Shown: piece by piece, positions 28,425 through 54,017 of the stretch | Layout: each line of letters starts with the position of its first letter | Position numbering within the stretch: the first letter of the stretch is position 1 | Source of the DNA: Candidatus Poribacteria bacterium | GTDB lineage: Bacteria > Poribacteria > WGA-4E > WGA-3G | Direction of reading: 5' to 3' | Assembly (NCBI GenBank): GCA_965209095.1 | Contig: OZ242381.1 | Coordinates: 4,126,630-4,190,629 of the forward strand | Length of the DNA stretch: 64,000 bases | Translations under genes and position numbers: made by a program | Notes under the pieces: generated by a model | Databases searched by the model: none | Told to the model about the DNA's origin: nothing | What the model saw: only the letters and a program-made list of their open reading frames with translations

Positions 28425-29135
28425 ATGTTAGTATCTGTAATCATTCCAGCATATAACGAAGAGCAAACAATTCTACAGGTATTAGAAAATGTGCAAGCGT
28501 TACCGATTCAAAAACAGATTATTGTTGTGAATGATGGTTCTACGGATAACACACATGCACTTCTTGAAAAAGTAAGTGTTGATGCCGAGGTGACTATAAT
28601 TCATCACGAGGTGAATAGAGGAAAAGGTTACGCAATTCGAAGTGGGATACCGCATATTAAGGGTAATTTGGTAATCATTCAGGATGCAGATATGGAACTC
28701 TGTCCGAGTGATATATTGCAGATAGTAGAACCGTTAAAAGATGATAGTGTTAAAGTTGTCTACGGTTCAAGGTTTCTAAATGGTAGAGGAAACGCGAGTC
28801 TTCACAACTATGTAGCAAACAAAATTCTTGCTATCTATACAAATATGCTTTATGGATGTAGAATCACGGATGAGTCTACGGGATATAAAGCATTTTCATC
28901 AAATCTGTTAAAGGCACTAAATTTAACTTGTGAAGGATTTGAATTTTGTCCTGAAGTGACAGCAAAGATATTACGTGGTGGTTTTAAGATTCAGGAAGTA
29001 CCTGTTTCCTATTTTCCACGTTCTAAGAAAGAGGGTAAGAAACTTCGCTTTTTCACGGATGGTTTCTTTGCTGCTTGGACATTGTTGAAATTTCGTTTTA
29101 TTTCAAAGAATAAGATTTTTAAGAAGAATACATGA
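28425..29135 (+). CDS. Family 2 glycosyltransferase (DPM1/GtrB-like).
   Basis: VSVIIPAYNEE, VVNDGSTDNT and a DxD-type motif near QDADME. Confidence 0.8.
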   Translation: MLVSVIIPAYNEEQTILQVLENVQALPIQKQIIVVNDGSTDNTHALLEKVSVDAEVTIIHHEVNRGKGYAIRSGIPHIKGNLVIIQDADMELCPSDILQIVEPLKDDSVKVVYGSRFLNGRGNASLHNYVANKILAIYTNMLYGCRITDESTGYKAFSSNLLKALNLTCEGFEFCPEVTAKILRGGFKIQEVPVSYFPRSKKEGKKLRFFTDGFFAAWTLLKFRFISKNKIFKKNT

Positions 29136-29158: not shown

Positions 29159-30778
29159 TTGATGATTTATAAAAACATGTTTATTTCCATATTATCTGTT
29201 GTGCTTATTGTGGGTTTTGTTATTTCAGTGCATGGGCACGGAGACGGTTCTACGCTATTAGAAGATGTCAATAACGATGGAACAGTCAACATACAAGACC
29301 TTGTGTTGGTGGCAAATTCGTTTGGACAACCAGGTGATCGGACTTCTGCAACAAATCCTGATGTTAATCGAGATGGTTTTGTTGATATTCTTGACCTTGT
29401 TCGTGTGGCAAACCGATTTGGTGAGACTGAACAGGGAGATAATTCGGCATATCATGACATTCAGGATCACATTTTTGACAAAAGTTGTGCAAATAGTGCA
29501 TGTCATGCACCGCCAACAAATTCTGCAGATTTAAACCTAACTTATGGACAGTCATATCAGGATTTGGTGAACCGGATCCCTCGTAATTCTGCAGCGGCAG
29601 CGGCGGGTATGAAACTCATTGATCCTGACAACCCTGACAACAGTTTCTTATTGACAAAGTTAATGAATATAGAAAATCAAGAGTTTGGGTCGCGCATGCC
29701 ATTTCAGATGGGGCAACTCCATAATGGCAAAATAGAAGCACTTCGAACATGGATTTCAGCTGGTGCACCACAAGAGGGTAAATTGGCAGGTATTGGTGAC
29801 TTAGGTGTCCTTCGTGATCCAGAGGAAAAATTCAATCCACCTAAACCGCCTGCTCCAGGAGAAGGGTATCAACTCTATTTACCACCCTTCAAAATTGAAC
29901 CTGGTACTGAACGAGAAGTCTACTTTGCAACGCAAATCTTGGATGACAACGGTGAACCTATAGAAGAAGACATTTTCATCAATAGAGTTGAGATTTTCTA
30001 TCCATCGGGTAGCCATCACTTCATCATATATCGACTCACAGAAGAAGGGCTTGCAAATGGCATTCTGGATAGAGGGGTAGATACGACAATTGGTGTTGAT
30101 CCAACACACGAATTCAGAGAACTTGATCCGGATGATCCACAAGTTTTGGGTAATTTCGGTATTGATAGGTTGTTTGTAGTAGGAACACAAACCGATGACA
30201 CAACCTTTGCATTTCCTGATAATGTCGCTCTCCGATTACCGGGAAATACGGTCTTTGACCTGAATTCTCACTATATCAACCTACTTGGTGATGAAACGTT
30301 GATCGGTGAAACTTATGTCAATATCTATACTATCCCTGAAGAAGATGTAAAATACGAAGCAATAGAGATATTTGTTTCCAATCGAGCAATCAACGTGCCT
30401 CCCAATACTACACGTGTCGCAAAATTAACTTGGTATGTTGAAGATGAGTTAGAACGTCGAGGACATGATCCTGACACGGAATTGCATGTATTTCTACTTA
30501 CATCACACATGCATAGACACGGTGAATTGTTTGAGATTTTTCAAGACTCAACAGGTGAGTTATTACACCGTAGTATAGCTTATGACGATGCCCCAATTAC
30601 ACTATTTCCCTCACCGATAATTTTAAGTGTGGACGACGGTATAAGTTTCCAATGCACCCATAACAATTACGATATAGATGGACCGCTTCAATTCGGACTT
30701 ACCTCCGAAGATGAGATGTGTATTATCTTCGGTTATTATTTCATTCCAATAGAAAAGGCTGGAGAAACAATCAAATAG
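29159..30778 (+). CDS. Secreted protein combining a dockerin repeat pair, a PSCyt1-like (planctomycete cytochrome-c-like) domain and a PHM/DBH-like copper type II monooxygenase domain.
   Basis: Signal peptide present. Dockerin repeats DVNNDGTVNIQDLVLVANSFG and DVNRDGFVDILDLVRVANRFG. The PSCyt1-like segment reads CANSACH...LNL...L..G...LIDPDNPDNSFLLTKL....RMP.....L....IEALRTWISAGA. The C-terminal 300 aa carries an HH pair at residues 286-287, H-x-F-x4-H-M-H-x2-G at 443-455 and Met520 in DEMC about 70 aa later. Confidence 0.6.
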   Translation: MMIYKNMFISILSVVLIVGFVISVHGHGDGSTLLEDVNNDGTVNIQDLVLVANSFGQPGDRTSATNPDVNRDGFVDILDLVRVANRFGETEQGDNSAYHDIQDHIFDKSCANSACHAPPTNSADLNLTYGQSYQDLVNRIPRNSAAAAAGMKLIDPDNPDNSFLLTKLMNIENQEFGSRMPFQMGQLHNGKIEALRTWISAGAPQEGKLAGIGDLGVLRDPEEKFNPPKPPAPGEGYQLYLPPFKIEPGTEREVYFATQILDDNGEPIEEDIFINRVEIFYPSGSHHFIIYRLTEEGLANGILDRGVDTTIGVDPTHEFRELDPDDPQVLGNFGIDRLFVVGTQTDDTTFAFPDNVALRLPGNTVFDLNSHYINLLGDETLIGETYVNIYTIPEEDVKYEAIEIFVSNRAINVPPNTTRVAKLTWYVEDELERRGHDPDTELHVFLLTSHMHRHGELFEIFQDSTGELLHRSIAYDDAPITLFPSPIILSVDDGISFQCTHNNYDIDGPLQFGLTSEDEMCIIFGYYFIPIEKAGETIK

Positions 30779-30885: not shown

Positions 30886-32763
30886 ATGCCTATAGATTCC
30901 AAATCAAACAACTTCTTGAATGCCTTGTCGAACCGAGTGCTGGTTTGTGATGGTGCCATTGGAACAGAACTTCGGAAACGGATCAAGGCATTACTTCCTT
31001 GCGTGGATGCTTGTAATATCATTGAAGAATATGCAGATGAAGTAGTCAAGATTCATACTGCTTATGTGAATGCGGGTGCTGATGTAATTCAAACCAACAC
31101 ATATCAAGCGAATAGGGAAGCATTGTCTATACATGGATTTGGTGATAAAGTAGATGAGATTAACCGTGTTGGTGTTAGATTAGCGCGACGTGCTGCAGGA
31201 AACCAACGGTTTGTCGCAGGTTCGGTTGGTGAAATATCCTTCAACATTGACAATGCTACAGACGCAGATATTGAACCATCCACCAAAAGAATTAGAACGC
31301 TATTTCAAGAACAGATGGATGCACTTGTAGATGAAGGTATTGATCTGTTAATATTAGAGACCTTTGTATCACAGAAACAAGCGGAGATTGCCACGAAGCA
31401 GGCACTAACTTACGATGTACCCGTTATAGTTGAAATAAGTGGTATTTCTGGTGGTACAGTTGGATCAGGATTAGATGTTAGAGTGTTTGCTCAGGAACTG
31501 GAACAATTAGGTGCACATGTAGTCGGTATCAATTGCAGAGGCCCCCACGACCTCGTTCAAGCGATGGAACTTCTTGCACCTGTGATCAGTGTGCCACTTG
31601 TTGTGCAACCCAATGCAGGAAATCCAAGAGTAGAACAGGGAGAAATAACCGTTTCTTACACCGTAGATTCAGATGTGTTTACGGACTATGTTCAAAAACT
31701 GATAAAGCTTGGTGCAAATATGATTGGTGGGTGTTGCGGTACGACACCTGAATATATCGCGAAGATTCAGGCAGCAGTTGGACAACAAAAACCGATAAAA
31801 CGAGTTCCGCGTATCTTTGTTCTACCCAAGAGTTCACCGTCTATTAAGACGCGCACAGACAATCCAGTTCAGCAAGTATTTGAGACTCGTCAACGCATTG
31901 TTAGTGTGGAAGCACGAGCAAATACTTTCCCACAACTACGTGCATTGTTGAAAGAAGCAAAGGTATTGGCGGCAATGGGGGTTGATCTCTTTGATGTAAC
32001 AGACAATTCTGGTGCGGCAGTCAACATAGGTGCGATCGGCACAGCATTTCGTCTACAACAAGCAACACACATTCCAACACTCATCCATTGGACAACGCGA
32101 TCTCGAAACCTCATCAGCATGCAATCACATCTGTTGGAAGCAGAGGCGTTGGGAATACGGGGGATTGTGGCACTGTCGGGTGATCATCCGAAGGCAGGAC
32201 CTTTTGAATCTGCAAGTCTTGTTCCTGATGTGCGTGGTGCAGTTCAATTGATGAAACTCATCTCCAGACTCAATCAAGGTGAACTTGCTGACGGTTCGTC
32301 AATTGGAGATCCGTGTGGGTTTTACATTGGCGGGGGTTTTACGATTGCTGAGAATCTTGATCCACATCTCAAGCATCTACGGAATAAGGTTGCGGCAGGT
32401 GCAAAATTTGCTTATACACAACCTGTGTGGACATTTGAGGACATCGTACGATCTCAGAAAGCAACAGAGGATATCGGAATAAAGATACTATATGGGATCT
32501 TACCATTAACAAGTTTCCGAAGTGCATCCTACCTACGCGATAATTTAGGTTTGTATATTCCTCAATTAATTGTGGACAAGTTCCGTGATCTTGGGGATAC
32601 TGCTGGAAACGAACTCGGTATGAAATTGACACTTGACCTTGTTCGTGAAATCCGAAATCAGGATACAGTCGCTATTGATGGTATCTATCTAATCCCGCCT
32701 GCCCGATTAAACTGGAGAAACAGACGTGGTGTCATCTCAGAAATCGTAAAAGTCTACCGTTAG
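30886..32763 (+). CDS. Bifunctional homocysteine S-methyltransferase / 5,10-methylenetetrahydrofolate reductase (YitJ-like fusion).
   Basis: N-terminal Hcy-binding domain blocks (VLVCDGAIGTEL, DVIQTNTYQAN) and the zinc-ligand region GGCCGTTPEYI. The C-terminal 300 aa resemble MetF/MTHFR (FDVTDNSGA, LSGDHP). 625 aa, comparable to B. subtilis YitJ. Confidence 0.8.
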   Translation: MPIDSKSNNFLNALSNRVLVCDGAIGTELRKRIKALLPCVDACNIIEEYADEVVKIHTAYVNAGADVIQTNTYQANREALSIHGFGDKVDEINRVGVRLARRAAGNQRFVAGSVGEISFNIDNATDADIEPSTKRIRTLFQEQMDALVDEGIDLLILETFVSQKQAEIATKQALTYDVPVIVEISGISGGTVGSGLDVRVFAQELEQLGAHVVGINCRGPHDLVQAMELLAPVISVPLVVQPNAGNPRVEQGEITVSYTVDSDVFTDYVQKLIKLGANMIGGCCGTTPEYIAKIQAAVGQQKPIKRVPRIFVLPKSSPSIKTRTDNPVQQVFETRQRIVSVEARANTFPQLRALLKEAKVLAAMGVDLFDVTDNSGAAVNIGAIGTAFRLQQATHIPTLIHWTTRSRNLISMQSHLLEAEALGIRGIVALSGDHPKAGPFESASLVPDVRGAVQLMKLISRLNQGELADGSSIGDPCGFYIGGGFTIAENLDPHLKHLRNKVAAGAKFAYTQPVWTFEDIVRSQKATEDIGIKILYGILPLTSFRSASYLRDNLGLYIPQLIVDKFRDLGDTAGNELGMKLTLDLVREIRNQDTVAIDGIYLIPPARLNWRNRRGVISEIVKVYR

Positions 32764-32773
32764 CACCTTTTCA

Positions 32774-34702
32774 ATGTCAACACATGGTCATCAAACCTCA
32801 ACGAAGCATATCACAGGACGTTCACTTCTCTTAGGTGTCCTTCTCATACCAATCAATGTTTACTGGATGACAATCGTTGAGGTGAAATACTACTCTCTTG
32901 ACGGATCATGCCTTCCACTGTTTATTCAGCCTGTCTTTATCATGTTTGTGTGTGCTGTTGCCAATGTCTCGTTGAAACGTATAGCACCACAATATATGCT
33001 GCGTCAAGGTGAGTTATTGACTGTCTATATTATGGTGGCAATTTCCTGCACATTTGCTGGACACGACGCTATGCAGAATATGTTTGGCAGTATTGCTCAT
33101 CCATTCCGTTTTGCAACGGAAGAGAATGAATGGCAGACACTGTTTTTTCGGTATCTTCCATCTTGGCTTACCGTGTCAGATCCTCTGAGTCTACAAGGAT
33201 TTTATGAAGGTGATGCCAGTTTCTATACCAGCCATAATTTTTCTGTGTGGTTAAAACCGTTATTATATTGGGGACTCTTTTTTCTTACGATGATGTTTAT
33301 GATGCTATGCATCAACACACTTGTCCGCAAACGGTGGGCAGAACAGGAGAAATTGGCTTATCCGATCATACAACTTCCATTGCATTTATCAGAAGCAGGT
33401 GGCATTAGTCTGTTGAAGAATAGAATGATGTGGATAGGATTTACGATAGCAGTGATTATTGGTGTCATAAACGGGATCAATTATCTGTTTCCACAGTTTC
33501 CACTGATCCCGTATATCAAGCGGACAGCAGTTTTTCAAGACATCTTCACAGAACGACCGTGGAGTGCGATACGAGGGACTCGTATCTCCATATATCCGTT
33601 TGCTGTTGGGTTGGCATTTTTTCTACCACTGGATCTATCATTTTCGTGTTGGTTTTTCTTTGTTGTACGGTTAGCAGAATTTGTGGTTGCGGCTGCACTT
33701 GGCACCCGATATTTTCCTGCCTTAAATGAACAGGCTTACGGAGCTTGGGTTGCGCTATTCGTTCTTGCAGTGTGGGTAACTCGTAGTCATTTGAAAGGTG
33801 TATTGAAAAAGGCACTGTGGTTCAGTTCTGATATAGATGACTCAAATGAACCGATGTCATATCGTGCTGCGATGTTAGGTATTATCGGATCGCTTATTGC
33901 ACTTGGCATCTTTGCCAATATTGCAGGAATGGCTTTATGGATTGCAGGTATATTCTTCGGTGTATATTTTCTTCTATCATTTGCGATCACTCGTGTTCGC
34001 GCTGAACTCGGCACCCCACATGAAATCTATTATGTCAACCCACACGATATGTTGGCTACTGTAGGTGGAACGCGTCAGTTTGATACAAGCAGTCTTACAA
34101 TCATGTCACTGTTTTATTGGTTCAATCGAGGCTATCGTAATCACCCTATGCCGAATCAGATTGAAGCATTTAAGTTGGCAGAGTCAACTGGGATGGGGAA
34201 CCGTCGGTTGTGGGTTGCGATGCTCATTGCGATTGTGGTTGGTATTATAGCAACTTTTTGGGCGAATCTTGACATTACATTCCGTAATGGGGCAGTAGCA
34301 AAGGCAGGTGGATTCAAGGGATGGGTCGGTAGAGAGTCATTTGGTAGACTTCAACGTTGGTTACATAATCCATCTGAACCGAATGTTGTTGGTATTGGGT
34401 TTATGGGGATTGGTGCGTTATTGACATTTGTTATGATGTATATGCGGATGCATTTCTTGTGGTGGCCATTCCATCCTGCTGGTTATGCACTTGCGATTAG
34501 TTTTGCGATGGATTATTTCTGGTTTGCGTTCTTTGTCGCATGGTTCTTGAAGTTATTGATATTACGTCATGGGGGGCTGAAGTTACATCGTAAAGTTGCA
34601 CCTCTATTCTTAGGTTTGATTTTGGGCGATTATGTTATTGGTAGTGTTTGGGCTATTATAGGACCTGCAACAGGGTTGCGGACTTACAAGATATTCATCT
34701 AA
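32774..34702 (+). CDS. Polytopic membrane protein of unknown family. Paralog of 140..2083, lying 11 bp downstream of the Hcy-methyltransferase/MTHFR gene.
   Basis: 642 aa with about 14 TM segments. Shares many conserved blocks with the 140..2083 protein. Confidence 0.75.
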   Translation: MSTHGHQTSTKHITGRSLLLGVLLIPINVYWMTIVEVKYYSLDGSCLPLFIQPVFIMFVCAVANVSLKRIAPQYMLRQGELLTVYIMVAISCTFAGHDAMQNMFGSIAHPFRFATEENEWQTLFFRYLPSWLTVSDPLSLQGFYEGDASFYTSHNFSVWLKPLLYWGLFFLTMMFMMLCINTLVRKRWAEQEKLAYPIIQLPLHLSEAGGISLLKNRMMWIGFTIAVIIGVINGINYLFPQFPLIPYIKRTAVFQDIFTERPWSAIRGTRISIYPFAVGLAFFLPLDLSFSCWFFFVVRLAEFVVAAALGTRYFPALNEQAYGAWVALFVLAVWVTRSHLKGVLKKALWFSSDIDDSNEPMSYRAAMLGIIGSLIALGIFANIAGMALWIAGIFFGVYFLLSFAITRVRAELGTPHEIYYVNPHDMLATVGGTRQFDTSSLTIMSLFYWFNRGYRNHPMPNQIEAFKLAESTGMGNRRLWVAMLIAIVVGIIATFWANLDITFRNGAVAKAGGFKGWVGRESFGRLQRWLHNPSEPNVVGIGFMGIGALLTFVMMYMRMHFLWWPFHPAGYALAISFAMDYFWFAFFVAWFLKLLILRHGGLKLHRKVAPLFLGLILGDYVIGSVWAIIGPATGLRTYKIFI

Positions 34703-36954
34703 TCTGGTCGTGTTTTAATTTTCATTTGCAGTTCACCTGTTTCAACATTCCATTTATGAAACCATCTTGTATCAATATCAGTACTTATTAGACTTTCACC
34801 ACTTGGTAAGAACTCATAAGCATCTATCGGTCCTCCAACCGCTTCAATAGTAGCTTTGAGTTTTCCCGTATTTAAATCCCATACGTGAAGTAAAACAGGA
34901 TCTCCTTTGCTAATTAAAGTATTCCCATCTGGAGACATAATGATCTGCGAGTGACTATATCCGTTCTTCTCAAGTATTGAACGGAGTGTGCCAGTATCTG
35001 TTTCCCATAACCGAATAGTTTTGTCAAGACTGCCGCTAACCAAAGTTTTTCCATTTTTTGTAAATTCAAGGTAATGGATCCAAGATGTATGTCCTTCAAG
35101 AGTCGCACTTTGTTTAGTATCAAGATTATATAACCATATTGTGTCATCCGAACTTGCACTTGCAAGCTTATTTCCATTTTCTGTAAACCTTATGAGATTG
35201 ATCTTGCCTGTATGTCCTTCATAAGTTGCTATTGGTTGTGCGTTTTGCACCGATGATATGTCCCAAAGCAGAATCTTGTTATCATGACATGCACTTGCAA
35301 GTAATTTTCCATTGGAAGATAATTCCATTGTATGAACACCTGCGGTGTGTTCTTTGAGTGTTACCTTATGTTCACCTGTTTTCGTGTCCCACAGACGTAT
35401 TGTGCTGTCACGGCTTGCACTGAACAGCGTTTTGCCATCTGGTGAAAATGCAAGGTCATCAATCCAAGACGTATGTCCATTGAGTGTTGTCTTGAGTTTT
35501 CCATTTCTTGTGTTCCATAGTCGAATCTGACTGTTATTCCAACCGTTTCCTGTAGCGATCGTTTTGGCATCAGGAGATAGTGCAACAGAATATATTTGTG
35601 CGAATTCGTCTTTAATTGTCACTCTGTGTTTACCAGAATCTGCATTCCATAGAGCGATGTCGTTGTTACTTATACTAACAAAGGTTTTTCCATCCTTGGC
35701 AAAAAAAGTAGATTTAACAGGAGACTGATAGTAGACTGGTGTTTCATGGACTTCACTGAGTTTCGTTCCTTTACGTGGAATTTTCCCGATATTAGTATTA
35801 CCTGATAGTATTTTATTTAGAGGCGGTTGCAGGAAGACAATCACGTATTGCCATCCAGCAAAGGAATCTTCAACGATATAGGTTACAGTGCTGACATCTG
35901 GTGAAAATTTAATTGGAGCACTATTCCGAATCCGATCATCCGAGATCGTTCTCTTATGCTTTCCAGTTTTTACATCCCATATACGTATACTATTCCAATG
36001 TGTATCACTCATACTTGCTAACATATTCCCGTCGGGTGAAAAATCTAAAGTAGTAACTCCCGCAACAAATATATAAGGTTTTGAAAGTGTTTTTATGTGT
36101 TGTGCCTTACTTACATCCCACAGCAAAATTTCTTGGTAACTGCCACCAGCAAGAATGTTACCGTCAGGTGAAAAAGCGAGAGATTCAACACTGCCTCTAT
36201 GTCCGGTTAGAGAGTTTAGTCTTTTTCCTGTGTTTGGATTCCATAAGATTATTTCCTGAAAACCCGCACTTGCAAGGACCTTTCCATCTGGAGAAAATTC
36301 GGCATCATAAACTTCGTCTGTATGTCCTTCCAGAGTATGTTTTAGATTACCTGTGTTAATATCCCACAACGCAATTCTCTGAATTCCGGTTAATGCGATA
36401 GTATTACCGTCTGGTGAAAACGCGGTCAAATTGCTCGCAGATACTTTGATAGACTTTAGTAAATGACCTGTTTGGACATCCCAAACCCTTATCATATCAT
36501 CAGATCCTTCACTCGCGATTTTTTTACTGTCAGGAGAAAATAGAATGGAGTAAGTTACATCTGTTGGTTCAAATATTGATAGTATTTCTTCACCATTGAT
36601 TGGATTCCATAATTGAATTTCATCATTTCGGTTATTCACACTTGCTAATATATTTCCATCATGAGAAAACTCAACCATATCGTACCATCCACCATAGGGA
36701 TGTGTATCGTCTTTGATGGTTAACTTTTTTTCATAAGTGTGTGCGTCAAATAACCATATTTCATCTGTAGCTGCTATAGCAAATCGGTTTCCATCTGGAG
36801 AATACTCGAAATCCTTTATTGCAGAAGATTCCATGATACTTAGAGCATCAACTGTTATAGGAAGATGCATAATGACATAGAAGAATGAACATATTGAGAT
36901 TATGAAAACAAGATATGAGTTTAGAATGTATTGGTTGAATTTAATGCCTTTCAT
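34699..36954 (-). CDS. WD40-repeat beta-propeller protein with an N-terminal TM/signal anchor (751 aa).
   Basis: Many WD units of the type FSPDG..LAS.S.D..I.LWD. An N-terminal hydrophobic helix is present. The stop overlaps the stop of the convergent membrane gene. Confidence 0.8.
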   Translation of the reverse strand: MKGIKFNQYILNSYLVFIISICSFFYVIMHLPITVDALSIMESSAIKDFEYSPDGNRFAIAATDEIWLFDAHTYEKKLTIKDDTHPYGGWYDMVEFSHDGNILASVNNRNDEIQLWNPINGEEILSIFEPTDVTYSILFSPDSKKIASEGSDDMIRVWDVQTGHLLKSIKVSASNLTAFSPDGNTIALTGIQRIALWDINTGNLKHTLEGHTDEVYDAEFSPDGKVLASAGFQEIILWNPNTGKRLNSLTGHRGSVESLAFSPDGNILAGGSYQEILLWDVSKAQHIKTLSKPYIFVAGVTTLDFSPDGNMLASMSDTHWNSIRIWDVKTGKHKRTISDDRIRNSAPIKFSPDVSTVTYIVEDSFAGWQYVIVFLQPPLNKILSGNTNIGKIPRKGTKLSEVHETPVYYQSPVKSTFFAKDGKTFVSISNNDIALWNADSGKHRVTIKDEFAQIYSVALSPDAKTIATGNGWNNSQIRLWNTRNGKLKTTLNGHTSWIDDLAFSPDGKTLFSASRDSTIRLWDTKTGEHKVTLKEHTAGVHTMELSSNGKLLASACHDNKILLWDISSVQNAQPIATYEGHTGKINLIRFTENGNKLASASSDDTIWLYNLDTKQSATLEGHTSWIHYLEFTKNGKTLVSGSLDKTIRLWETDTGTLRSILEKNGYSHSQIIMSPDGNTLISKGDPVLLHVWDLNTGKLKATIEAVGGPIDAYEFLPSGESLISTDIDTRWFHKWNVETGELQMKIKTRPD

Positions 36955-37239: not shown

Positions 37240-39375
37240 TTATCTCCTTGGTTGTAGATTAGGATTGTCCAATTTCCAAAGTAGAATAGTACTGCCAACA
37301 CTTGCAATAGTTTTTTCATCTTTAGAAACTATAAATGTATCAATATAATCTGGTTGTGCGTCAAGGGTCAATTTTGGTTCCCACGTTTCTGTGTTCAAAA
37401 ACTCGATCATGTTTCCACTTATACTTACTAATGTATTTCTATCTGGGTAAAATGAAACTGGTTGATACCCAAATAGTGTTTTCTTATACGCTCCAGTCTT
37501 TGTATCCCATAACAGAGTATGTCCAAAATAACTTGTGGTTGCTACGGTTTCACCATCAGGAAAAAAGACTATTGAACTGACACTTTCTGTATGCCCTATA
37601 AGTGTAGCAATGAGTTCAAAAGTCTCTGTATTCCATAATCGTACTGTTTCGTCAAGACTTGCACTTGCTAAAATACTTTTATCGGGTGAGAAGACAATAA
37701 AATCCACACCACCAGTATGTCCTTTCAGCGTTGTTATATGTTCACCAGTATTGACATTCCATATTGGAATACGACCACCTCCCAGACCTATCAACATTTG
37801 ACTATCTGAAAAAAATTCAACGGAATTAACGTTGTAGTCCTTGATATCCATTGTCAATTTATGATCAGCTGTGCCTACATTCCAGAGTTCAAGTGTGGGT
37901 TCAGAACTTGTAGCACGACTGACTAAAGTTTTGCCATCAGGCGAAAAATGTAGTAACTGTAATCTACCTTTCTTACCTGTAGAAATTATCCTTTCTCCTT
38001 CACCCGTTTTTGTGTTCCACAATTGTATAATTGGAGGATCATTCCAATTATTTACCCTATTAATTCCAATTGCTACCATAATTCCATCTGAAGATATTGA
38101 AGCAACATCACCTGAATAGGTTCTAATTAGCTTTTGCGTATTTATATCCCAGATCTGTATATGGTTCAGATACCAACAGGCAATTGCATTTCCATCGTGA
38201 ATGATCATTGCATTAGATTGTACTGAGATATGTTTTTCATTGATTGGCGTATGTTCTCCTGTAGTAATATCCCATAGTCCCAGATCATTCGCGAGTTTTT
38301 TGCCGTCAGGTGAAAACACTAATGTGTTGTTTTCTGATTTGATATCAAGGAGCGTTTTTTCAATTTCTCTTGTATTCATATCCCATATATTGATTTTGTC
38401 TTGTTCGTAGCTTGCATATTTTTTCCAATTTGGAGAGATAAATATGCGTCCTTTATGTTCCCATGTAGGATTGCCGGTCCTAACATCCCACAATTTGGAG
38501 TTATTTTTGTGTATTGTTACTATCGTCCTATTGTCTGGAGAAAAAGCAATGAAATTGGTGTCATATAGACCAACATTAAATTTCTCTTTGAATGTTCTGA
38601 TATTTTTACCAGATTTCGTGTCCCATAACCGGAGCGTTCCATCATAGGTAAGACTAACGAGCATACGGTTATCTCGTGAAAAAGCAACAGAATAGACTAC
38701 GTCTTTATAGTTGAGAGGCTTTGATGGCATATTGAGTTTGTGAATCTGTTGACCGGTTTCTGCATTCCATATTCGAGATGTACCATCATCACTACCACTT
38801 GCCAACATACTATTGTCTGGTGAGAAGGAAATCGCTGTTACATCACTTGTATGTCCTTTAATGTTATTCATGTTCTCACCAGTGTTTGTATTCCACAATT
38901 TAATAGTCCTATCCTTGCTTGCAGTTGCAATTGTATTGCCATCAGATGCATACACAATACTCGTAATATCTTTTGTATGACCTTTTAGTGTTGTTCTGAG
39001 ATTTGCTTGGATTGGGTCATAAGATATATCCCATAATTCAACAGCCTTATCCGATGGATCATTAGCAGCAAACATCGTTCCATCAGGTGAAAAGACAATG
39101 TTTGACACATTTATAGGCAGTAGCCTAATTTCTTTGTATGTCGTTGCGTCATAAATCCATAAACCTATCGTACTTGGTATTATTATCTTTGTGCTATCTG
39201 GAGAAAAAACAATTTTATCTGTGATGTAGCCCTTTCCAATGCGTGCAATTGCACCTTCAGGTAATTCCCATTTTGAATATTCTTGGGTAAAACCGATTGA
39301 GAGTATTTGCATCATTGAGAGGATGATTGTGATAAAGTATTTCATGGATTTTAATTTACCTAATACAAAATTCAA
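37240..39375 (-). CDS. Secreted WD40-repeat beta-propeller protein (711 aa) with signal peptide.
   Basis: The N-terminal signal is MKYFITIILSMMQILS. Numerous WD40 units are present (GHT..V.S..FSPD...LAS.S.D.T.RLWN). Confidence 0.8.
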   Translation of the reverse strand: MNFVLGKLKSMKYFITIILSMMQILSIGFTQEYSKWELPEGAIARIGKGYITDKIVFSPDSTKIIIPSTIGLWIYDATTYKEIRLLPINVSNIVFSPDGTMFAANDPSDKAVELWDISYDPIQANLRTTLKGHTKDITSIVYASDGNTIATASKDRTIKLWNTNTGENMNNIKGHTSDVTAISFSPDNSMLASGSDDGTSRIWNAETGQQIHKLNMPSKPLNYKDVVYSVAFSRDNRMLVSLTYDGTLRLWDTKSGKNIRTFKEKFNVGLYDTNFIAFSPDNRTIVTIHKNNSKLWDVRTGNPTWEHKGRIFISPNWKKYASYEQDKINIWDMNTREIEKTLLDIKSENNTLVFSPDGKKLANDLGLWDITTGEHTPINEKHISVQSNAMIIHDGNAIACWYLNHIQIWDINTQKLIRTYSGDVASISSDGIMVAIGINRVNNWNDPPIIQLWNTKTGEGERIISTGKKGRLQLLHFSPDGKTLVSRATSSEPTLELWNVGTADHKLTMDIKDYNVNSVEFFSDSQMLIGLGGGRIPIWNVNTGEHITTLKGHTGGVDFIVFSPDKSILASASLDETVRLWNTETFELIATLIGHTESVSSIVFFPDGETVATTSYFGHTLLWDTKTGAYKKTLFGYQPVSFYPDRNTLVSISGNMIEFLNTETWEPKLTLDAQPDYIDTFIVSKDEKTIASVGSTILLWKLDNPNLQPRR

Positions 39376-42666: not shown

Positions 42667-44295
42667 TTGAGGAAATACTGGGACATGATTGGCACAATGA
42701 TGAATAATCCTTTATCAATTTCGCTAATAATTGAACACGCTAATAGTATACACGGTGATAAGTATGTGTATACTCTTTTGCCAAATGGAAAGAGAAATGA
42801 CTTTGCCTATTCAACCCTTTACAGCCGTATAATGAAATTAGCAAATGCTATCTCAAATTTGGGCATACAACAAGGGGAGATTGTGGGTGCTTTTGCTACC
42901 AATTCATACCAACATTTGGAACTTTGCTTTGCCGTTCCAGTTATAGGTTCAATTATCCATCCACTAAACATTAGACTTTCACCTGTGCAACTTGCTAAGA
43001 TTATCAGAGAAGCAGATGACAAAATCATCTTTGTTGATGAAATGGTTTATGACAAATTCGCTCACTTAATTAGTGAAATTGAAAGTCTACAATCTATAGT
43101 CTACAACTCTCAGAAATGCATGAATGAATCAACATGTCAATATGAAATGTTGTTATCTAATGCAAGTAACAAATACAAATCAGAAATCATTGACGAAAAT
43201 ATGGCAATGGCATTATGTTATACAAGTGGTACGAATGGTGAACCAAAGGGTGTTCTCTATACACATCGTTCCATGCTTTTACATACTTTAGTAGTCAATC
43301 AAACTGATGTGTTTGGTCTAACAGAAGCAGATGTTGTGATGCCGCTTGTGCCAATGTATCACGCAATGGGATGGGGACTACACTTCGCAGCTATATTTGT
43401 CGGTGCGGATCTCGTGTTAACCGATCCGAACAATAAACATATAATTGATCTCATCGCAGAAACCAAAGTTACCGTTTCAGCAGGAGTGCCAACTGTTTGG
43501 AAAAAACTATTGCCTGATTTTCTCAAAAGAAAAAACGATGTTTCTTCACTACAACGAATAATAGTCGGCGGAGAACCGATGCCAGAACAACTCGTTGAGG
43601 TGTATGAAAAAGAACTGGATATAGAAGTCCGACATGCATGGGGAATGACGGAAATGTCTCCAACTGGGACATTTTCTATGCTTAGAAAGAAACATCATAA
43701 ACTATCTGATAAAGAAAGATACAAAATAAAGGCATTACAAGGTCAACCAATTCCCGGCGTTCAGTTACGGGTCGTTGATGAAAATCAGCGTATACTATCT
43801 AATGATGGAATTTCTGTAGGAGAAGTGCAAGTCAAGAGTCCTTGGACAGCATGTAGTTACTTCAACAACGGATTAGACAACGATAGTTTTACTGAGGATG
43901 GTTGGTTACGCACGGGGGATCTTGCAACAATCAATGAAGAAGGTTACATGAAGATTGTTGACCGATCTAAAGCACTTATCAAAAGTGGTGGCGAGGCCAT
44001 TTCTCCTATGGCATTAGAAGCAGCACTACTAAATCATCCACTTGTTATTGATAGTGTAGTTATCGGTGTTTCTGATGACAAATGGGGTGAAAGACCGTTG
44101 GCAATCGTTGTGTTATCAGAACAGAACGGTGGAGATATATCAGAAGCACTGAAGGAACATCTTTCTACAGATTTCCCAAAATTTTGGATACCAGATAGGT
44201 TTATTGTTGTCGATGAAATTCCAAGAACTGGCGTGGGTAAAACAGATAAACAAACAATAGGACGGCTGTTACATATTAACGAAAGTTTGATATAA
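42667..44295 (+). CDS. AMP-dependent acyl-CoA synthetase/ligase (long-chain fatty-acid-CoA ligase-like).
   Basis: AMP-binding motif YTSGTNGEPKGV, GWGL/TE blocks and a C-terminal GVGKTDK-like lysine region. The start may be the Met at 42685, which has GAGGAA 10 nt upstream. Confidence 0.8.
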   Translation: MRKYWDMIGTMMNNPLSISLIIEHANSIHGDKYVYTLLPNGKRNDFAYSTLYSRIMKLANAISNLGIQQGEIVGAFATNSYQHLELCFAVPVIGSIIHPLNIRLSPVQLAKIIREADDKIIFVDEMVYDKFAHLISEIESLQSIVYNSQKCMNESTCQYEMLLSNASNKYKSEIIDENMAMALCYTSGTNGEPKGVLYTHRSMLLHTLVVNQTDVFGLTEADVVMPLVPMYHAMGWGLHFAAIFVGADLVLTDPNNKHIIDLIAETKVTVSAGVPTVWKKLLPDFLKRKNDVSSLQRIIVGGEPMPEQLVEVYEKELDIEVRHAWGMTEMSPTGTFSMLRKKHHKLSDKERYKIKALQGQPIPGVQLRVVDENQRILSNDGISVGEVQVKSPWTACSYFNNGLDNDSFTEDGWLRTGDLATINEEGYMKIVDRSKALIKSGGEAISPMALEAALLNHPLVIDSVVIGVSDDKWGERPLAIVVLSEQNGGDISEALKEHLSTDFPKFWIPDRFIVVDEIPRTGVGKTDKQTIGRLLHINESLI

Positions 44296-44373
44296 GAAAA
44301 ATGGTCAAATTACTATGGCTGAATCTCCTACAATAGCAGTAGGAATGGTTTTGCAGTTATTTGAGGTAAAAAA

Positions 44374-45108
44374 ATGACAGACAATGATTATAAATTGAGC
44401 TTAAAAGAAGCGAATCAATTTCGAAAACAGGGGTACCTTGGTCCTTATACACTCTGTAGTCCAGAAGAAATGCTAAAACATCAACCGGAAATTGAGCATA
44501 TTCTTGAAACTGATGCACCTGATCATAAGAATAGGGTCCATAACCGTCATCTTGACTATCCGTTGATATATGACCTTGCTACACATCCATCCATCGTTGA
44601 TCGTATGTCATCTCTTTATGGACCCGATCTTTTGCTATGGCGGACAAATTTCTTCGTAAAAGAACCAGGTGCAAAAGAAATACCTTGGCATCAGGATTTC
44701 AACTATTGGCCTCTTGAACCCCCAATTATTATATCAGCATGGATAGCAATTGATTCTGCTACTTTGGAAAATAGTTGTCTCCAAATTGTGCCTGGATCGC
44801 ATCGCAAAGTAATTCCTCATGTAAAAGCAACATCAGAAATGGCATTTGGACAGATGGGTGATCTTAACTATATTGACGCAAATAATTATGTCAATCTTGA
44901 AATGCAACCAGGTGAATTTGTTCTTTTCAATGAACGTACACTTCACCACTCTGAAGCAAACCGTTCAGAGAAAAGACGAATTGGATTGGCTGTGCGTGTC
45001 ATCGTACCAATTGTAAAAGTCTTTGATTGGGATTCTCCGAAACACGAGTTGATAGTAATTAGTGGAAAAGATACAGTACAATTCAATAAAAGGAGTTATA
45101 ATGAATAG
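44374..45108 (+). CDS. Phytanoyl-CoA dioxygenase (PhyH) family Fe(II)/2-OG oxygenase.
   Basis: PWHQDFNYW (the HxD of the facial triad) with a downstream His in LHHSEAN. Translationally coupled to the next gene through the ATGAATAG overlap. Confidence 0.7.
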   Translation: MTDNDYKLSLKEANQFRKQGYLGPYTLCSPEEMLKHQPEIEHILETDAPDHKNRVHNRHLDYPLIYDLATHPSIVDRMSSLYGPDLLLWRTNFFVKEPGAKEIPWHQDFNYWPLEPPIIISAWIAIDSATLENSCLQIVPGSHRKVIPHVKATSEMAFGQMGDLNYIDANNYVNLEMQPGEFVLFNERTLHHSEANRSEKRRIGLAVRVIVPIVKVFDWDSPKHELIVISGKDTVQFNKRSYNE

Positions 45109-46111
45109 ACAAATAACATTAGCTGCACGTCCTGTTGGATATCCAAAAGAATCAGATTTCAAACTTGTAGAAACGCCTATTCCTTCACCGGATGATGGTC
45201 ATGTCTTAGTTAAAACCATCTATCTTTCAGTTGATCCATATATGCGTGGACGAATGAATCAGGTGCGTTCTTATGCTGCAAACGTTGAATTCAATGAAGT
45301 GATGGTAGGTGGTGTTATCGCCCAAGTAGTAGAATCGAAGCATAAAGATTTTCGAGAAGGTGATATAGTCAACGCACATATTGGTTGGCAAGAATATGGT
45401 GTCTCTGGTGGAGATGGATTACGGAAAATAGATCCTTCTATTGCTCCGATTTCAACGGGTATCGGTATACTCGGTATGCCTGGATTGACTGCTTATTTTG
45501 GATTGCTTGAGGTGGGGAATCTTCAAGACGGTGAAACCGTGTTTGTTTCAGGAGCTGCGGGTGCTGTCGGTTCTGTTGTCGGTCAGATTGCAAAAATAAA
45601 AGGTTGTCGTGTTATTGGGTCGGCAGGGACAGATGAAAAGCTTGCTTATGTAACAGATGAACTCGGTTTTGATGAAGCCTTTAATTATAAGAACGTTGAT
45701 GATTATCATACAAAGTTAGCGGAACTCTGTCCTGATGGCATTGATGTATATTTTGATAATGTCGGTGGAAAGATAACTGATGCTGTATTCCCAAATTTAA
45801 GAGTTAAGGGACGGGTTGTTATTTGTGGACAGATATCACAATACAATTTAGAAAGTCCTGAAACTGGTCCGCGTTTCCTTTGGTATATGATTACAAAACG
45901 CGCAAGAATTGAAGGGTTCCTTGTCTCTGATTTTACTGGAAAATATGCGGATGGTCTAACCCAACTTGCGGATTGGCTACAGCAAGGTAAACTGCAATAC
46001 CGGGAAACCATTACTGAAGGTGGGATAGAAAACGCACCTGCAGCATTTATCAGCATGCTCAAAGGTGGAAATATCGGTAAACAACTGGTAAAAATATCTG
46101 ATCCAAGTTAA
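45101..46111 (+). CDS. NADP-dependent medium-chain dehydrogenase/reductase (2-alkenal/enone reductase, YncB/PTGR1-like).
   Basis: Nucleotide-binding motif GAAGAVGSVVGQIAKIKGCRVIGSAG. The N-terminus ARPVGYPKESDF is typical of this subfamily. RBS AAGGAG precedes the ATG at 45101. Confidence 0.8.
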   Translation: MNRQITLAARPVGYPKESDFKLVETPIPSPDDGHVLVKTIYLSVDPYMRGRMNQVRSYAANVEFNEVMVGGVIAQVVESKHKDFREGDIVNAHIGWQEYGVSGGDGLRKIDPSIAPISTGIGILGMPGLTAYFGLLEVGNLQDGETVFVSGAAGAVGSVVGQIAKIKGCRVIGSAGTDEKLAYVTDELGFDEAFNYKNVDDYHTKLAELCPDGIDVYFDNVGGKITDAVFPNLRVKGRVVICGQISQYNLESPETGPRFLWYMITKRARIEGFLVSDFTGKYADGLTQLADWLQQGKLQYRETITEGGIENAPAAFISMLKGGNIGKQLVKISDPS

Positions 46112-47146: not shown

Positions 47147-47653
47147 ATGCTATTTGATAAAAAACATTTATACGCAGTTACACTTACTATATTTTCAGTA
47201 TGTATTTTACTTACTGCTGGACTAATATCTGGTTGTGGAGATGAAGGTGATCCTCCTACAGAGATGGTCAACGGAAATGGTGATAAAACACCAGATCCCG
47301 ATCCTGATCCTACAGATCCTGTTGTTGATCCCGATCCTGATCCTGTTGATCCTCCTGCCCCTGGTGTAACCTTTAAGGATGATATTATGCCAATCCTTGC
47401 ACAAACTTGTGCCATTGCTAATTGCCATGACAATACTGCTCTAAAAGGACTAAATCTTACCACTTATGACAACTTCAAGAAAGGTGGCAATAGTGGTCCT
47501 GCCTTTGTAGCAGAGGATGCGGACAACAGTCTCGTTGTAAAGTATATTAAAGGAGAAGAGCAACCTCAAATGCCCATTGGTGGAAATCCACTAAATGCAG
47601 ACGAAATTCAGCTTTTTGTTGATTGGATCAATGCAGGTGCTGAAAATAATTAA
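47147..47653 (+). CDS. Lipoprotein with a Pro/Asp-rich linker and a PSCyt1-like cytochrome-c-type domain.
   Basis: The lipobox is LISGC. The linker reads PDPDPDPTDPVVDPDPDPVDPP. The domain reads CAIANCH...LKGLNL....KGGNSGPAFVAEDADNSLVVKYI.....MP.GGNPL...EIQLFVDWINAGA. Confidence 0.65.
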   Translation: MLFDKKHLYAVTLTIFSVCILLTAGLISGCGDEGDPPTEMVNGNGDKTPDPDPDPTDPVVDPDPDPVDPPAPGVTFKDDIMPILAQTCAIANCHDNTALKGLNLTTYDNFKKGGNSGPAFVAEDADNSLVVKYIKGEEQPQMPIGGNPLNADEIQLFVDWINAGAENN

Positions 47654-47975
47654 TTTTCGTCCTATCTCCATTTGTATGCGGGGTCTGTCTCTATGACAAA
47701 CCCCGCATTTTCATTGTAACACATCTATCAAACCAACATTCCAATATATCAATACATAATCATATCAACATTTCGTTCCTCAATCAACGATATTTATCTA
47801 ATTGAGGGATGTGCATAAATATTTGACGCATCAACACAACAGCGACAGACTTCTGGTGCAGCTTATTTATAAAAAGCAGAATGCGCCAAATCAACGGTAT
47901 GAATGGGTGTGTAAAGTATTTGTCACCATAGTCATCAATTTCTTGAAAGGACATTGCATTTTTGATCTTTGAAAA

Positions 47976-48033
47976 GGTACCGTTTGGTACGTTTTTTCGG
48001 ATTACGGTACGTTTTTGGTACGTTTTTGGTACG
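47976..48033. repeat. Array of five GGTAC(C)G(TTTTT) direct repeats with 10/20/11/11-bp spacing (helically phased). An extra copy lies at about 48108.
   Basis: Read directly: ggtaccgtttggtacgttttttcggattacggtacgtttttggtacgtttttggtacgg. Confidence 0.6.
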
Positions 48034-48594
48034 GTGCTGTGAGTCCAGTCTGTATATGGGTTTGTGAATGATTTTCGTGTATATTTCTGGAAATTTCAAT
48101 TTTTCGATTCGGTACGTTTTGTGATTTATGTTTTGGGTGTCCTGATATGTATTATTTAAGATATATAGACACCACATCATAATCCGATTGATCCGTGTGG
48201 TGTATTCTGATTCAGTCTGTTTTTCACTTCTATTGTCCTGCGTTAACATGATATTCTCTCTGCTGGTTTGGACCAATTCTATTCTTGAAATTGCTTTTTC
48301 TGTTGTAATGTATGAGGAGCAATGAATTGTGCGACTATGCCCCTATTGTCCTTCATGATATGTTCAGAACTTGTATAGAACAATCGTGATGTGCGAAATC
48401 ATGGTTATATCGTAAGATTTCTCTGACTGAGTTGCCTATTTGCGTTTCTAAACTTGCGTAGTTGAATTGGACATATCCACTAAACACATGTTAAGTATAC
48501 TATACATATATGTGATTGTCAAGTAAAAATAATAGAGAATCTATATTTTTTCAGATATTGTTGATAATCTTGAATTTCTATCGTATTGTTTCAA

Positions 48595-49557
48595 CGATTT
48601 AGACGTTGTTGCTTTAGAAAAAACACTCAGTGCATGGGCAGCTGATGTGTTCGCAGCTACGCAGGAAGACGATAAGAATGCGGTAGCAATAGATGGCAAA
48701 ACCTTATGTGGCAGTCTCACTCAAGATGCTCAAATCACACAGCTGTTATCTGTTGTGACACATCAACTCGGTATCACACTCACACAGCGACCTGTGTCTG
48801 ACAAAACGAATGAAATCCCTATTGCTTCACGCATCCTACAAGCGTTTGATGTCGCAGGCGAAGTGGTGACAACAGATGCATTGCTGACACAACGCGCGTT
48901 CTGTCAAGATTTATGTGATGCGGATGCGGATTATGTCATGCCTGTGAAAGAAAATCACCCGCTCTATTAGAAGATATTCGCGCCGTATTTGAAAGTGGAC
49001 ACTCGGACACCCGGACGTCACACCCCACAAAAACAAGTGAACAGATACATAAGGAACTCGGGGCACGGACAGATACTTGCACCACTGTTGAAAAAGACAA
49101 GGGTGGCTTCAAACGCGCACGATGACGACAAGCACAATCCTAATAGATACAGGATATGTGGACTGGCCGGGGCTTGCACAAGTTTACTAATATAAGAGAG
49201 AACGAAAACATGCCCGCACCGGAGAAAAGAGCACGATGACGCAATATGGCATAACAAGTCTAACGCCTGAGTGTGGGTCAGCAAAACGGATTCTAATGCT
49301 CCGTCGTGGGCATTGGGCGATAGAGAACCTATCGCACCGCACGCGGGATGTGCTCTTTGATGAGGATGCGTCTCAAGTCCGGTGTGGCAACATACCTCAG
49401 GTGATGTGTGCATTACGAAATGCAACCATTAGTCTATTGCGCACTTCTGGAAACACAGCCATAGCTTCTGCATTCCGCTATTTTGGAGCAAAACCTAAAG
49501 AAGCATTCACACTATTAGGAGCAAACATCTACAATTGAATGCTTCTGCTACCCGACC
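48595..49557 (+). pseudogene. Older ISAs1-family copy, 5'-truncated and frameshifted. Its probable degenerate right terminus lies at about 50937..50950.
   Basis: Fragments VAIDGKTLCGS...TDALLTQRAFCQD and MTQYGITSLTPE...RRGHWAIENLSHRTRD align with the middle and C-terminus of the intact transposase at 49696..50859. Frames are disrupted between them. Confidence 0.6.
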
Positions 49558-50874
49558 CAGGGTTATTTAGTTTTCGGTATTTTAGTCGTTTTTTATCACA
49601 AACGTTAATAATTTTAGATACGCAGAAATAGCGTGAAAAATCACGCTATTTCTGCTATACTTCACCTTAAAAATCTTAACCCTTTGAGGTGAAAAATGAC
49701 AGAGAATAACTCTCGCCACTTGTTAGATAGATTAGCAGAAATCGAAGACCCGCGCAACGAAAAAGGAAAACGACATCCGTTGAATTCAATCCTTGGCCTT
49801 AACATTATTGGTTTTATGACTGGACATAAAGGATATACATCCACCGCAAAGTGGGCACGATCTCAACCAGATCTCGTCCAAGCACTCGGTTTTACACACG
49901 AGAAATCACCTTGTTCCGCAACGATACATAATGTTCTAAAAATATTAGATGCGGATACTGTTGAAAAGACATTTACAAACTGGGTAGAAGATGTTTGTCC
50001 AAGTCGGTCTGATTTAGCAGGATGTCTTGACGCAGTCGCTATAGACGGTAAAACGATGCGTGCCTCCAAAAAAAGTGGTGCGGCAATAAGCCATTTACTC
50101 TCCGTTGTTTCTCATGAGTTAGGGGTTACCCTGACACAACAAGGTATCAGGGACAAAACCAACGAAATACCGATTTCAACAGAGATCCTCAAAAACTTTG
50201 ATGTGAGTGGTAAAGTCATCACAACAGATGCGCTTTTGACACAGAAAACTTTCTGCCAAGAAATCATAGAGGGTGATGGAGACTATGTGCTCCCTGTCAA
50301 AAACAACCACCCCGACCTTTGCGATGATATCCAAAAACTCTTTCAAGATGTTCCTGACACACCTTCACAAGACGCTACACATCCTCTATTGGGAGACCCT
50401 ATTGACACTCACGAGACTTATGAAAAATCACATGGTAGAATTGAGACAAGATGCCTAAAAGCAAGCACAAGTCTCAACGCATATCTGGACTGGCCAGGGA
50501 TAGAACAGGTGATCCAATATCGTTATATTCACGAAAACCCAAATACAGGAGAAGAAACAACCAAAGTCACCTATGGTATTACAAGTCTGACACCCGAAGC
50601 AGCTACTGCCGAACGCTTACTTGAACTACGCCGTGGGCATTGGTCTATAGAGAACAAATCGCATTGGATCCGAGATACTCAACTTGGAGAAGACGCATCG
50701 TCTGTCCGATGCGGTGCTATTCCGCAGGTTATGGCTGCTTTGCGAAATGCAGCATTAGCAGTATTGAGATTTGATGGCGTTACAAGTATAGCTGATAAAA
50801 TAAAATATTATGCTTCAAAACCTTTACTCGCAGTTAACTTGATAACTGAATGTTTTTAAAACTAAATAACCCTG
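49558..50874 (+). mobile_element. Intact ISAs1-family insertion sequence (1317 bp) with 15-bp terminal inverted repeats and a 9-bp target-site duplication.
   Basis: Left inverted repeat CAGGGTTATTTAGTT (49558..49572). Right inverted repeat AACTAAATAACCCTG (50860..50874). Direct repeat TACCCGACC at 49549..49557 and 50875..50883. Confidence 0.75.
49696..50859 (+). CDS. ISAs1-family (H-repeat-associated, DDE_Tnp_1-like) transposase.
   Basis: 387 aa. VAIDGKTMRAS, TTDALLTQK and RRGHWSIENKSHWIRD are characteristic ISAs1 transposase blocks. Confidence 0.8.
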   Translation: MTENNSRHLLDRLAEIEDPRNEKGKRHPLNSILGLNIIGFMTGHKGYTSTAKWARSQPDLVQALGFTHEKSPCSATIHNVLKILDADTVEKTFTNWVEDVCPSRSDLAGCLDAVAIDGKTMRASKKSGAAISHLLSVVSHELGVTLTQQGIRDKTNEIPISTEILKNFDVSGKVITTDALLTQKTFCQEIIEGDGDYVLPVKNNHPDLCDDIQKLFQDVPDTPSQDATHPLLGDPIDTHETYEKSHGRIETRCLKASTSLNAYLDWPGIEQVIQYRYIHENPNTGEETTKVTYGITSLTPEAATAERLLELRRGHWSIENKSHWIRDTQLGEDASSVRCGAIPQVMAALRNAALAVLRFDGVTSIADKIKYYASKPLLAVNLITECF

Positions 50875-50959
50875 TACCCGACCTACAACACTTCATAAAT
50901 ATGAACAAATGTGATAAAATACAACCAAAATACCTAAAACTAAATAGTCCCGTGAGAAA

Positions 50960-53822: not shown

Positions 53823-54017
53823 CTGATACCTCAATAACGAATTAGTCTTTTTAATATATAGACGCGATTTTGAGGAAAAGAATTGCATTTTTTTGAAAAA
53901 AGCGTATTCTCAAAGAAATGTATGGGTTTTAGTTCAGAGAAGTCAGAAGTTGTATGTAGGGTAGTATGAAATGGTATTACATACCAGGTAGGTGAATATT
54001 GAACTATTTATTATTCA

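Follow-up and report, generated by a model that had tools for sequence, protein, structure and literature searches.

The 64,000-nt stretch of Candidatus Poribacteria DNA analyzed here (contig OZ242381.1; "the window" denotes this whole stretch) carries two genes for large membrane proteins, which we call copy A and copy B (Table 1). Copy B lies directly behind a yitJ-type gene on the same strand, and copy A lies behind a PhyH-family gene and a gene for a solute-binding protein (SBP). An earlier examination of the letters alone, the sequence-only reading, had described copies A and B as a pair of uncharacterised paralogs and had suggested, from the position of copy B, that the family might transport a methyl donor. 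We find that the pair is real and that both genes probably represent a very divergent OPT/Yellow-Stripe branch, likely encoding proton-coupled secondary carriers. We assign this interpretation a probability of about 0.7; the substrate is not deducible.

Table 1. Coordinates of the genes and sequence features discussed in the text. Positions are those of the window or, where a locus is named, of that fetched locus.
Feature	Sequence	Position	Strand	Remarks
Copy B, DUF6785+DUF6784 membrane protein	window	32774..34702	+	642 aa; predicted OPT/YS1-fold secondary transporter
Copy A, DUF6785+DUF6784 membrane protein	window	140..2083	-	647 aa; 38% identity to copy B
Most conserved sequence block of the family	window	33320..33364	+	copy B residues ~183-197, LVRKRWAEQEKLAYP
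yitJ-type bifunctional homocysteine S-methyltransferase/MTHFR	window	30886..32763	+	Pfam and NCBIfam NF006396
PhyH-family gene	window	2554..3411	-	Pfam
SBP_bac_6/8 solute-binding protein	window	3419..4852	-	Pfam
TOBE-domain ABC ATPase	window	8496..9617	+	
Dpm1-like family 2 glycosyltransferase (GT2)	window	28425..29135	+	small protein
Dockerin/Cu-monooxygenase gene	window	29159..30778	+	predicted secreted
Selenocysteine synthase SelA	window	6003..7550	+	534 bits
Large repeat proteins	window	34699..36954; 37240..39375; 61757..63949	-	711-751 aa
AMP-binding ligase, second PhyH-family oxygenase, zinc-type alcohol dehydrogenase	window	42667..46111	+	gene string
DDE_Tnp_1 transposase	window	49696..50859	+	
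Sigma-70 r2 + r4 paralogs	window	51975..53888; 54169..57060; 57331..60159	-	three in tandem
Paralog pair	L131	2407..6272		tandem or divergent
Paralog pair	L132	1112..4747		tandem or divergent
Paralog pair	L024	7893..11911		tandem or divergent
Paralog pair	L074	1228..6887		tandem or divergent
Paralog pair	L160	4120..9829		tandem or divergent
Paralog pair	L168	3944..7905		tandem or divergent

Both open reading frames (ORFs) are present as the sequence-only reading had placed them. They align end to end with 38% identity and 59% positives over 645 columns (BLASTP, E 1e-151), and on this ground the two copies are true paralogs. A hidden Markov model (HMM) of the family recovers just these two genes and no third copy in the window. 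All four sequence motifs that had been listed as conserved can be found in the translations (ENEWQTLF/ENEWKQIF, LAYPIIQ/LAYPITQ, RWLHNPSEPN/RWFYYPTEPN and WWPFHPAGY/WWPFHPIGF), except that copy A ends the last one in F where the proposed pattern has Y. The estimate of about 14 transmembrane segments (TMS) was roughly right, since a hydropathy scan resolves some 12-13 distinct strongly hydrophobic stretches.

The description as uncharacterised holds insofar as a full-text literature search for DUF6785 or DUF6784 returned no paper, but Pfam already has entries that cover it. In a scan at E≤1, both copies matched two Pfam HMMs, each above its cutoff, and no others: DUF6785 (PF20581) over the N-terminal ~500 residues (570.2 bits for copy B and 516.2 bits for copy A, cutoff 25) and DUF6784 (PF20580) over the C-terminal ~100 residues (126 and 111.6 bits, cutoff 26.4). 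One or both of these domains occur in 120 of the 120 listed homologs, which their sources name "hypothetical" or "DUF6785 family protein", and no NCBIfam model matches either copy at E≤1. DUF6785/DUF6784 is not a new family; its assignment to the OPT/YS1 fold is absent from the papers and database names in the sources searched.

This assignment comes from the comparison of predicted structures with transporter folds that the sequence-only reading had recommended. AlphaFold2 models computed without templates (for copy B from a 35-sequence alignment) reached a mean predicted local distance difference test score (pLDDT) of 88.3 for copy B and 87.1 for copy A, with a predicted TM-score (pTM) of 0.90 for both. 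A Foldseek search against the PDB returned two significant matches only, 7wst_A (E 4e-9) and 7wsr_A (E 1e-8), with a probability of 1.00 and TM-scores of 0.63-0.71 (0.67/0.71 for copy B against 7wst_A). Both entries are barley Yellow Stripe 1 (HvYS1), 7WST being its complex with Fe(III)-DMA. All remaining hits, among them carriers of the APC, BCCT, NSS, MFS and ABC types, scored E>0.06 and a TM-score of ~0.1 in the same search, in agreement with the earlier remark that the proteins have no recognizable ABC-permease or APC-transporter identity. The models contain 25-28 helical elements, including helix breaks at the positions where YS1 has its hairpins and its discontinuous helix, and show a similar succession of helices in both halves. 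As predicted structures, both proteins reproduce the YS1 architecture with its core and scaffold domains from end to end. To our knowledge, the three-dimensional architecture of YS1 had no structural homologue when it was solved.

Several results weigh against this assignment and have to be set beside the structural match. At the level of conventional sequence models, neither copy matches Pfam PF03169 (OPT) or any NCBIfam OPT model at E≤1. No PDB sequence, that of HvYS1 included, is picked up by the family profile at E≤10. Profile-profile comparison by hhalign against a plant Yellow Stripe-like (YSL) profile gave a probability of 0.4% for the 35-sequence family alignment; a larger one of 143 members (Neff 5) reached 2.6% (E 0.018), and both values are below accepted thresholds. 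The YSL profile covers the N-terminal part only: the plant YSL sequences retrieved were fragments of 119-279 aa, and the profile was built from fragments of 200-280 residues. An hhalign comparison of the N-terminal with the C-terminal half detected no internal repeat (probability 0.2%); the similar helix halves of the models could fit the 8+8 duplication of OPT proteins, but the hydropathy scan resolves no more than the 12-13 stretches given above. Finally, transport itself, its direction, its coupling to protons and the kind of substrate are predictions based on HvYS1 and related OPT proteins.

The sub-threshold similarity has a definite structure. The bait was a stretch of YS1, confirmed by a PDB sequence search as HvYS1 residues 45-213 (E 1e-106), and the YSL profile comprises 32 aligned plant fragments annotated with PF03169. 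The 143-member comparison produced one colinear alignment of 147 columns (DUF 11-197 to YSL 45-197), in which the pre-TM1 motif "vTxR" falls on "iTvRG", the Glu of the OPT "RQEN" motif meets the invariant E80 of the family, and "RKxWxExEKLxYP" lies over "PLRKxxxiDYKLxYPSG". The most conserved block of the family thereby lines up with the OPT/YSL block PLRK...DYKLxYPSG, in hhalign and in hmmsearch alike. When an HMM of the YSL fragments was run against 2695 six-frame ORFs of at least 150 aa from the window and 160 fetched loci, DUF6785 genes filled 35 of the 40 top places (best E 0.006), always through one block that pairs HMM positions 156-193 with residues ~157-195. With a column-reversed HMM of identical composition they took 3 of the 40, which rules out a purely compositional effect. 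Since family members are not independent samples, this ranking counts as one observation. Taken together, these comparisons are suggestive of a weak, colinear and non-compositional similarity to the N-terminal half of YSL proteins, below accepted thresholds.

A tblastn search of plasmids with the HvYS1 fragment found no bacterial OPT, and the 2.3 Mb of fetched loci contain no separate OPT gene: the YSL HMM matched DUF6785 genes only. Because the hhalign probabilities are this low, divergent homology to the OPT superfamily, which we consider likely, rests on predicted structure together with sub-threshold sequence similarity.

By analogy with OPT proteins, each of the two proteins would be a proton-coupled secondary carrier that needs no partner protein and may form a homodimer. 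In the proposed elevator mechanism, the core domain, which would bind the substrate, shifts relative to the scaffold domain and so brings in a small organic molecule of a type known from OPTs, for example short peptides, glutathione, chelates derived from amino acids, or folates. Among 143 family representatives, W166, W188, E192, L194, P197, P240, P243, S291, R337, R407, R409, G413, E464, H567, K593, G614 and G618 are at least 90% conserved, with W188, E192, L194 and P197 at ≥93%. The charged residues conserved throughout the family are E192, R337, R407, R409, E464, H567 and K593. The invariant polar positions E192, R407/R409, E464, H567 and K593 are candidates for a substrate or proton site; in HvYS1, the acidic residues that bind protons, D446, D490 and D494, belong to the core domain. 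The family also has a conserved "YKIFI" tail at the C-terminus, and in HvYS1 it is S1 that provides the β-strand between protomers.

Since function is read here from the fold alone, these proteins might share the YS1-like architecture and be exporters, flippases, membrane enzymes or receptors instead of importers. Two contexts would fit such a role: the Dpm1-like polyprenyl-phosphate GT2 stands two genes upstream of the yitJ-linked copy B in the same string, and a GtrA-like gene abuts a family member at one Armatimonadetes locus. A catalytic or structural role might likewise underlie the large number of invariant Trp, Pro and Gly residues. We regard this alternative as unlikely, albeit the best of those we considered.

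A methyl-donor importer, as the sequence-only reading had proposed, ranks lower and appears quite improbable. In this model, copy B would take up S-methylmethionine, a betaine or a sulfonium compound for use by a co-transcribed YitJ, similar to mmuP-mmuM of E. coli. The yitJ gene itself was recognized correctly: it matches S-methyl_trans and MTHFR in Pfam as well as NCBIfam NF006396 (502.6 bits, cutoff 453). Its TAG stop ends at 32763, which leaves 10 nt and no terminator-like site before the ATG of copy B on the same strand. Furthermore, YitJ has the homocysteine S-methyltransferase domain common to MmuM and BHMT, and the pair is kept in 27 loci of sponge-type Poribacteria. In the present genome, yitJ and copy B are probably co-transcribed; across the family, the partnership with yitJ is not conserved. 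Two results speak against the methyl-donor model: the protein scores above the cutoff of the equivalog model for the biosynthetic bifunctional enzyme, and an Rfam scan of the window found no riboswitch or other RNA element ahead of the pair.

Further evidence against it comes from a survey of gene context in homologs. Lack of conserved linkage to methionine-cycle genes had been named in the sequence-only reading as the outcome that would overturn the methyl-donor proposal. The survey comprised 81 loci from one-genome-per-species contigs (including L081) and 79 metagenome loci retrieved with copy A as the seed; homologs and related loci mark the source of the window as a sponge-type Candidatus Poribacteria. 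A yitJ gene stands upstream of a family member in 27 of these 160 loci, all with genes ≥84% identical to copy B. All 27 also share the longer string adh_short-GT2-dockerin/Cu-monooxygenase-yitJ-DUF, and the gap between yitJ and the transporter gene varies from 9 to 1533 bp, with an intervening ORF in L013.

An 85% identical ortholog (L017) and every ortholog of 62-78% identity are without yitJ. In the 70-78% clade, glycine oxidase ThiO of the DAO family is encoded upstream instead (280-292 bits, NCBIfam cutoff 250.8). ThiO is the glycine oxidase of thiamin biosynthesis. It precedes the copy B ortholog in seven loci from marine non-sponge Poribacteria (L020, L022, L023 and L161-L164), at a spacing of 6-27 bp in L022, L023, L163 and L164 and with a transposase-like insertion between the two genes in L161 and L162. 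An identification of this DAO gene as a sarcosine or dimethylglycine oxidase, which would have matched a methylamine theme and the betaine idea, was ruled out by the NCBIfam assignment to ThiO.

Further away, a 68% ortholog is located after asd and a methyltransferase gene, a third Poribacteria paralog group adjoins and precedes a TrpD-like gene, and an Armatimonadetes member is found by itself, with the nusA-infB operon on one side and a ribosomal-protein operon on the other. From clade to clade the transporter gene is retained and its upstream neighbor changes. The linkage is confined to orthologs of ≥84% identity whose loci have the upstream GT2 and dockerin genes in common as well; the simplest explanation for yitJ next to copy B is therefore lineage-specific, shallow synteny. 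No conserved linkage to a homocysteine methyltransferase gene thus emerged among the homologs, which leaves the methyl-donor substrate unsupported. The substrate of neither copy is deducible from gene context.

The same survey bears on another substrate proposal, in which copy B would import an OPT-type substrate for one-carbon or sulfur metabolism, namely 5-methyl-tetrahydrofolate (5-methyl-THF), other folates or glutathione. This would account for the position of copy B after the MTHFR-containing yitJ and would suit the strong fold match to the OPT superfamily. Fungal and plant OPTs carry glutathione and folates including 5-methyl-THF (bioRxiv 10.1101/2025.06.23.661034), and glutathione or peptides have been proposed from context for several prokaryotic OPTs (PMC3061005). 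However, the linkage to yitJ is equally non-conserved here, no folate or glutathione genes recur among the tallied neighbors, and the structural alignments show the family to be only ~11% identical to HvYS1, a level at which a substrate is not transferable. We rate this proposal marginally below the methyl-donor model.

A bolder version would make DUF6785/DUF6784 an unrecognised sister family of OPT/Yellow-Stripe. Its yitJ-linked clade in sponge-associated Poribacteria would be a dedicated importer that supplies the yitJ enzyme with a one-carbon or sulfur metabolite of host or community origin, namely S-methylmethionine, glutathione, or a folate such as 5-methyl-THF. This version strikes us as no more probable than the methyl-donor model. 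If true, the sister family would be the second known with the OPT/YS1 fold, and its members, numbering in the thousands, would be spread over Poribacteria, Armatimonadota and environmental bacteria.

For copy A, the sequence-only reading had pointed to the adjacent PhyH-type oxygenase and binding-protein genes. This arrangement exists in the window, where copy A starts 470 bp downstream of the PhyH gene and this gene follows the SBP gene at 7 bp, but it is missing in the 86-91% identical orthologs of copy A, which have a HepT/MNT toxin-antitoxin gene or an E1 dehydrogenase upstream and neither SBP nor PhyH. One 75% ortholog of copy A has PhyH. As a recurrent partner, PhyH was considered and rejected: it stands next to copy A and in L086, L023 and L168, but accounts for 3 of 130 neighbors. 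We read this adjacency as background abundance, because the window alone has two PhyH genes.

That copy A might form the membrane part of a binding-protein-dependent secondary system (as in TRAP or TTT) using the upstream SBP is barely credible and was rejected: the SBP and PhyH genes precede copy A on the same strand, and the window holds an SBP and a TOBE-domain ATPase with no BPD_transp_1 match in its scanned ORFs, but the gap from PhyH is 470 bp, the SBP is missing from the close orthologs, and no SBP_bac_1/6/8 occurs among recurrent neighbors.

The TOBE-domain ATPase of the ATP-binding cassette (ABC) type lies 3.6 kb from the SBP/PhyH pair on the opposite strand. Because no scanned ORF in the window matched the permease domain BPD_transp_1, both this ATPase and the SBP look like orphaned ABC components. 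Copies A and B themselves lack the combination of BPD_transp_1 and conserved SBP/ATPase adjacency that marks an ABC importer permease.

Across the family, no operon partner is conserved. Of the 130 neighbors that lie within two genes of a family member (39 loci after dereplication), at most 4 belong to any one Pfam family. A second tally, of 62 dereplicated and closely linked neighbors (same strand, within 80 bp), gave hits to 139 different families and again a maximum of 4 for each. The genes are often duplicated, with tandem or divergent pairs at 10 fetched loci plus L168. The paired genes are distant paralogs, ~30-40% identical to each other's closest window copy, and their frequency points to repeated duplication and specialisation. 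A stand-alone, duplicated and partnerless gene is what we would expect of a diversifying secondary carrier.

The family is large and mainly prokaryotic: a profile search of 1.84 billion representatives at 50% identity found 7183 clusters at E≤0.001, of which 2518 also pass E≤1e-30. The closest relatives occur in Poribacteria, in Armatimonadota (Chthonomonadaceae, Fimbriimonadaceae, Capsulimonadaceae, Abditibacteriales, Fervidibacter) and on assorted metagenome contigs.

Other features of the window deserve mention. The Dpm1-like GT2 gene precedes the gene for a predicted secreted protein with a dockerin type I and a Cu2-monooxygenase C-terminal-like domain, and this pair lies upstream of yitJ in 27 of the 27 syntenic loci. 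On its other side, copy B overlaps by 4 nt, with its stop codon, the end of a convergent gene, the first of three for large repeat proteins. The last of these contains 12 scored WD40 repeats, and the same kind of repeat is visible in the other two translations.

The selA gene is followed by an FGE-sulfatase-type gene; ARAGORN detected neither a tRNA-Sec nor any other tRNA in the 64 kb. The string of AMP-binding ligase, second PhyH-family oxygenase and zinc-type alcohol dehydrogenase may be a small tailoring cluster, and the best NCBIfam match of this PhyH protein is "chlorinating enzyme" (124.7 bits, under the cutoff of 226). The DDE_Tnp_1 transposase sits within ~4 kb of otherwise short ORFs (gaps 47653..49696 and 50859..51975), probably an insertion sequence with degraded surroundings. 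Finally, the three tandem paralogs with N-terminal sigma-70 r2 and r4 domains are of the extracytoplasmic function type, and two of them extend into a long C-terminal Sortilin/BNR/DUF6242 beta-propeller, an unusual architecture.

The assignment to the OPT/Yellow-Stripe branch would offer more than 7000 DUF clusters a testable functional class, that of an elevator-type, probably proton-coupled carrier of the OPT/YS1 fold. It would also extend this fold, with one solved representative, to a second, very divergent bacterial lineage, whose proteins could be easier to handle for mechanistic study. The expansion of the family in sponge symbionts, to at least 2-3 paralogs per genome, makes it of interest for nutrient exchange with the host. 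The yitJ case also carries a caution: even a tight 10-nt junction with a methionine-cycle gene can be shallow synteny and is not usable for naming a substrate.

Among known systems, mmuPM of E. coli is the precedent for a transporter paired with a homocysteine methyltransferase, and its MmuP is an APC-family permease. The placement of this transporter beside the PF02574 homocysteine S-methyltransferase MmuM resembles that of copy B behind yitJ. Unlike MmuP, copies A and B yield models with no significant APC/LeuT fold match, and the LeuT-type 5+5 inverted-repeat fold was not found for the family models by Foldseek against the PDB; the pairing with yitJ, moreover, is not conserved across divergent lineages and does not occur outside the ≥84% orthologs.

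Prokaryotic OPTs (PF03169) are closer in habit, since they are widespread stand-alone bacterial carriers in mixed gene contexts, as the DUF6785 genes are. They are recognized by OPT models, whereas DUF6785/DUF6784 proteins are not, and their substrates (peptides, glutathione, oligosaccharides) have been guessed from context only (PMC3061005). The OPT superfamily as a whole has 16 TMS from an internal 8+8 duplication (PMC3061005). The substrates known for it comprise tetra- and pentapeptides, glutathione, and complexes of metals with nicotianamine or phytosiderophores; folates, 5-methyl-THF among them, are a recent addition (PMC3061005; bioRxiv 10.1101/2025.06.23.661034).

The fungal and plant OPTs of the PT clade, which share this superfamily with HvYS1, transport small peptide-like solutes by proton symport (PMC3061005; bioRxiv 10.1101/2025.06.23.661034). 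By description, these proteins (S. cerevisiae Opt1/Hgt1 and the AtOPTs) are set apart by 16-17 predicted TMS and long hydrophilic termini that DUF6785 proteins do not have, but they suggest plausible substrate classes for the family, namely tetra- and pentapeptides, glutathione and folates. The nearest comparison in structure is HvYS1 (PDB 7WSR/7WST), of the plant YSL metal-chelate transporters within the OPT superfamily, which provides the sole significant fold match of the family models.

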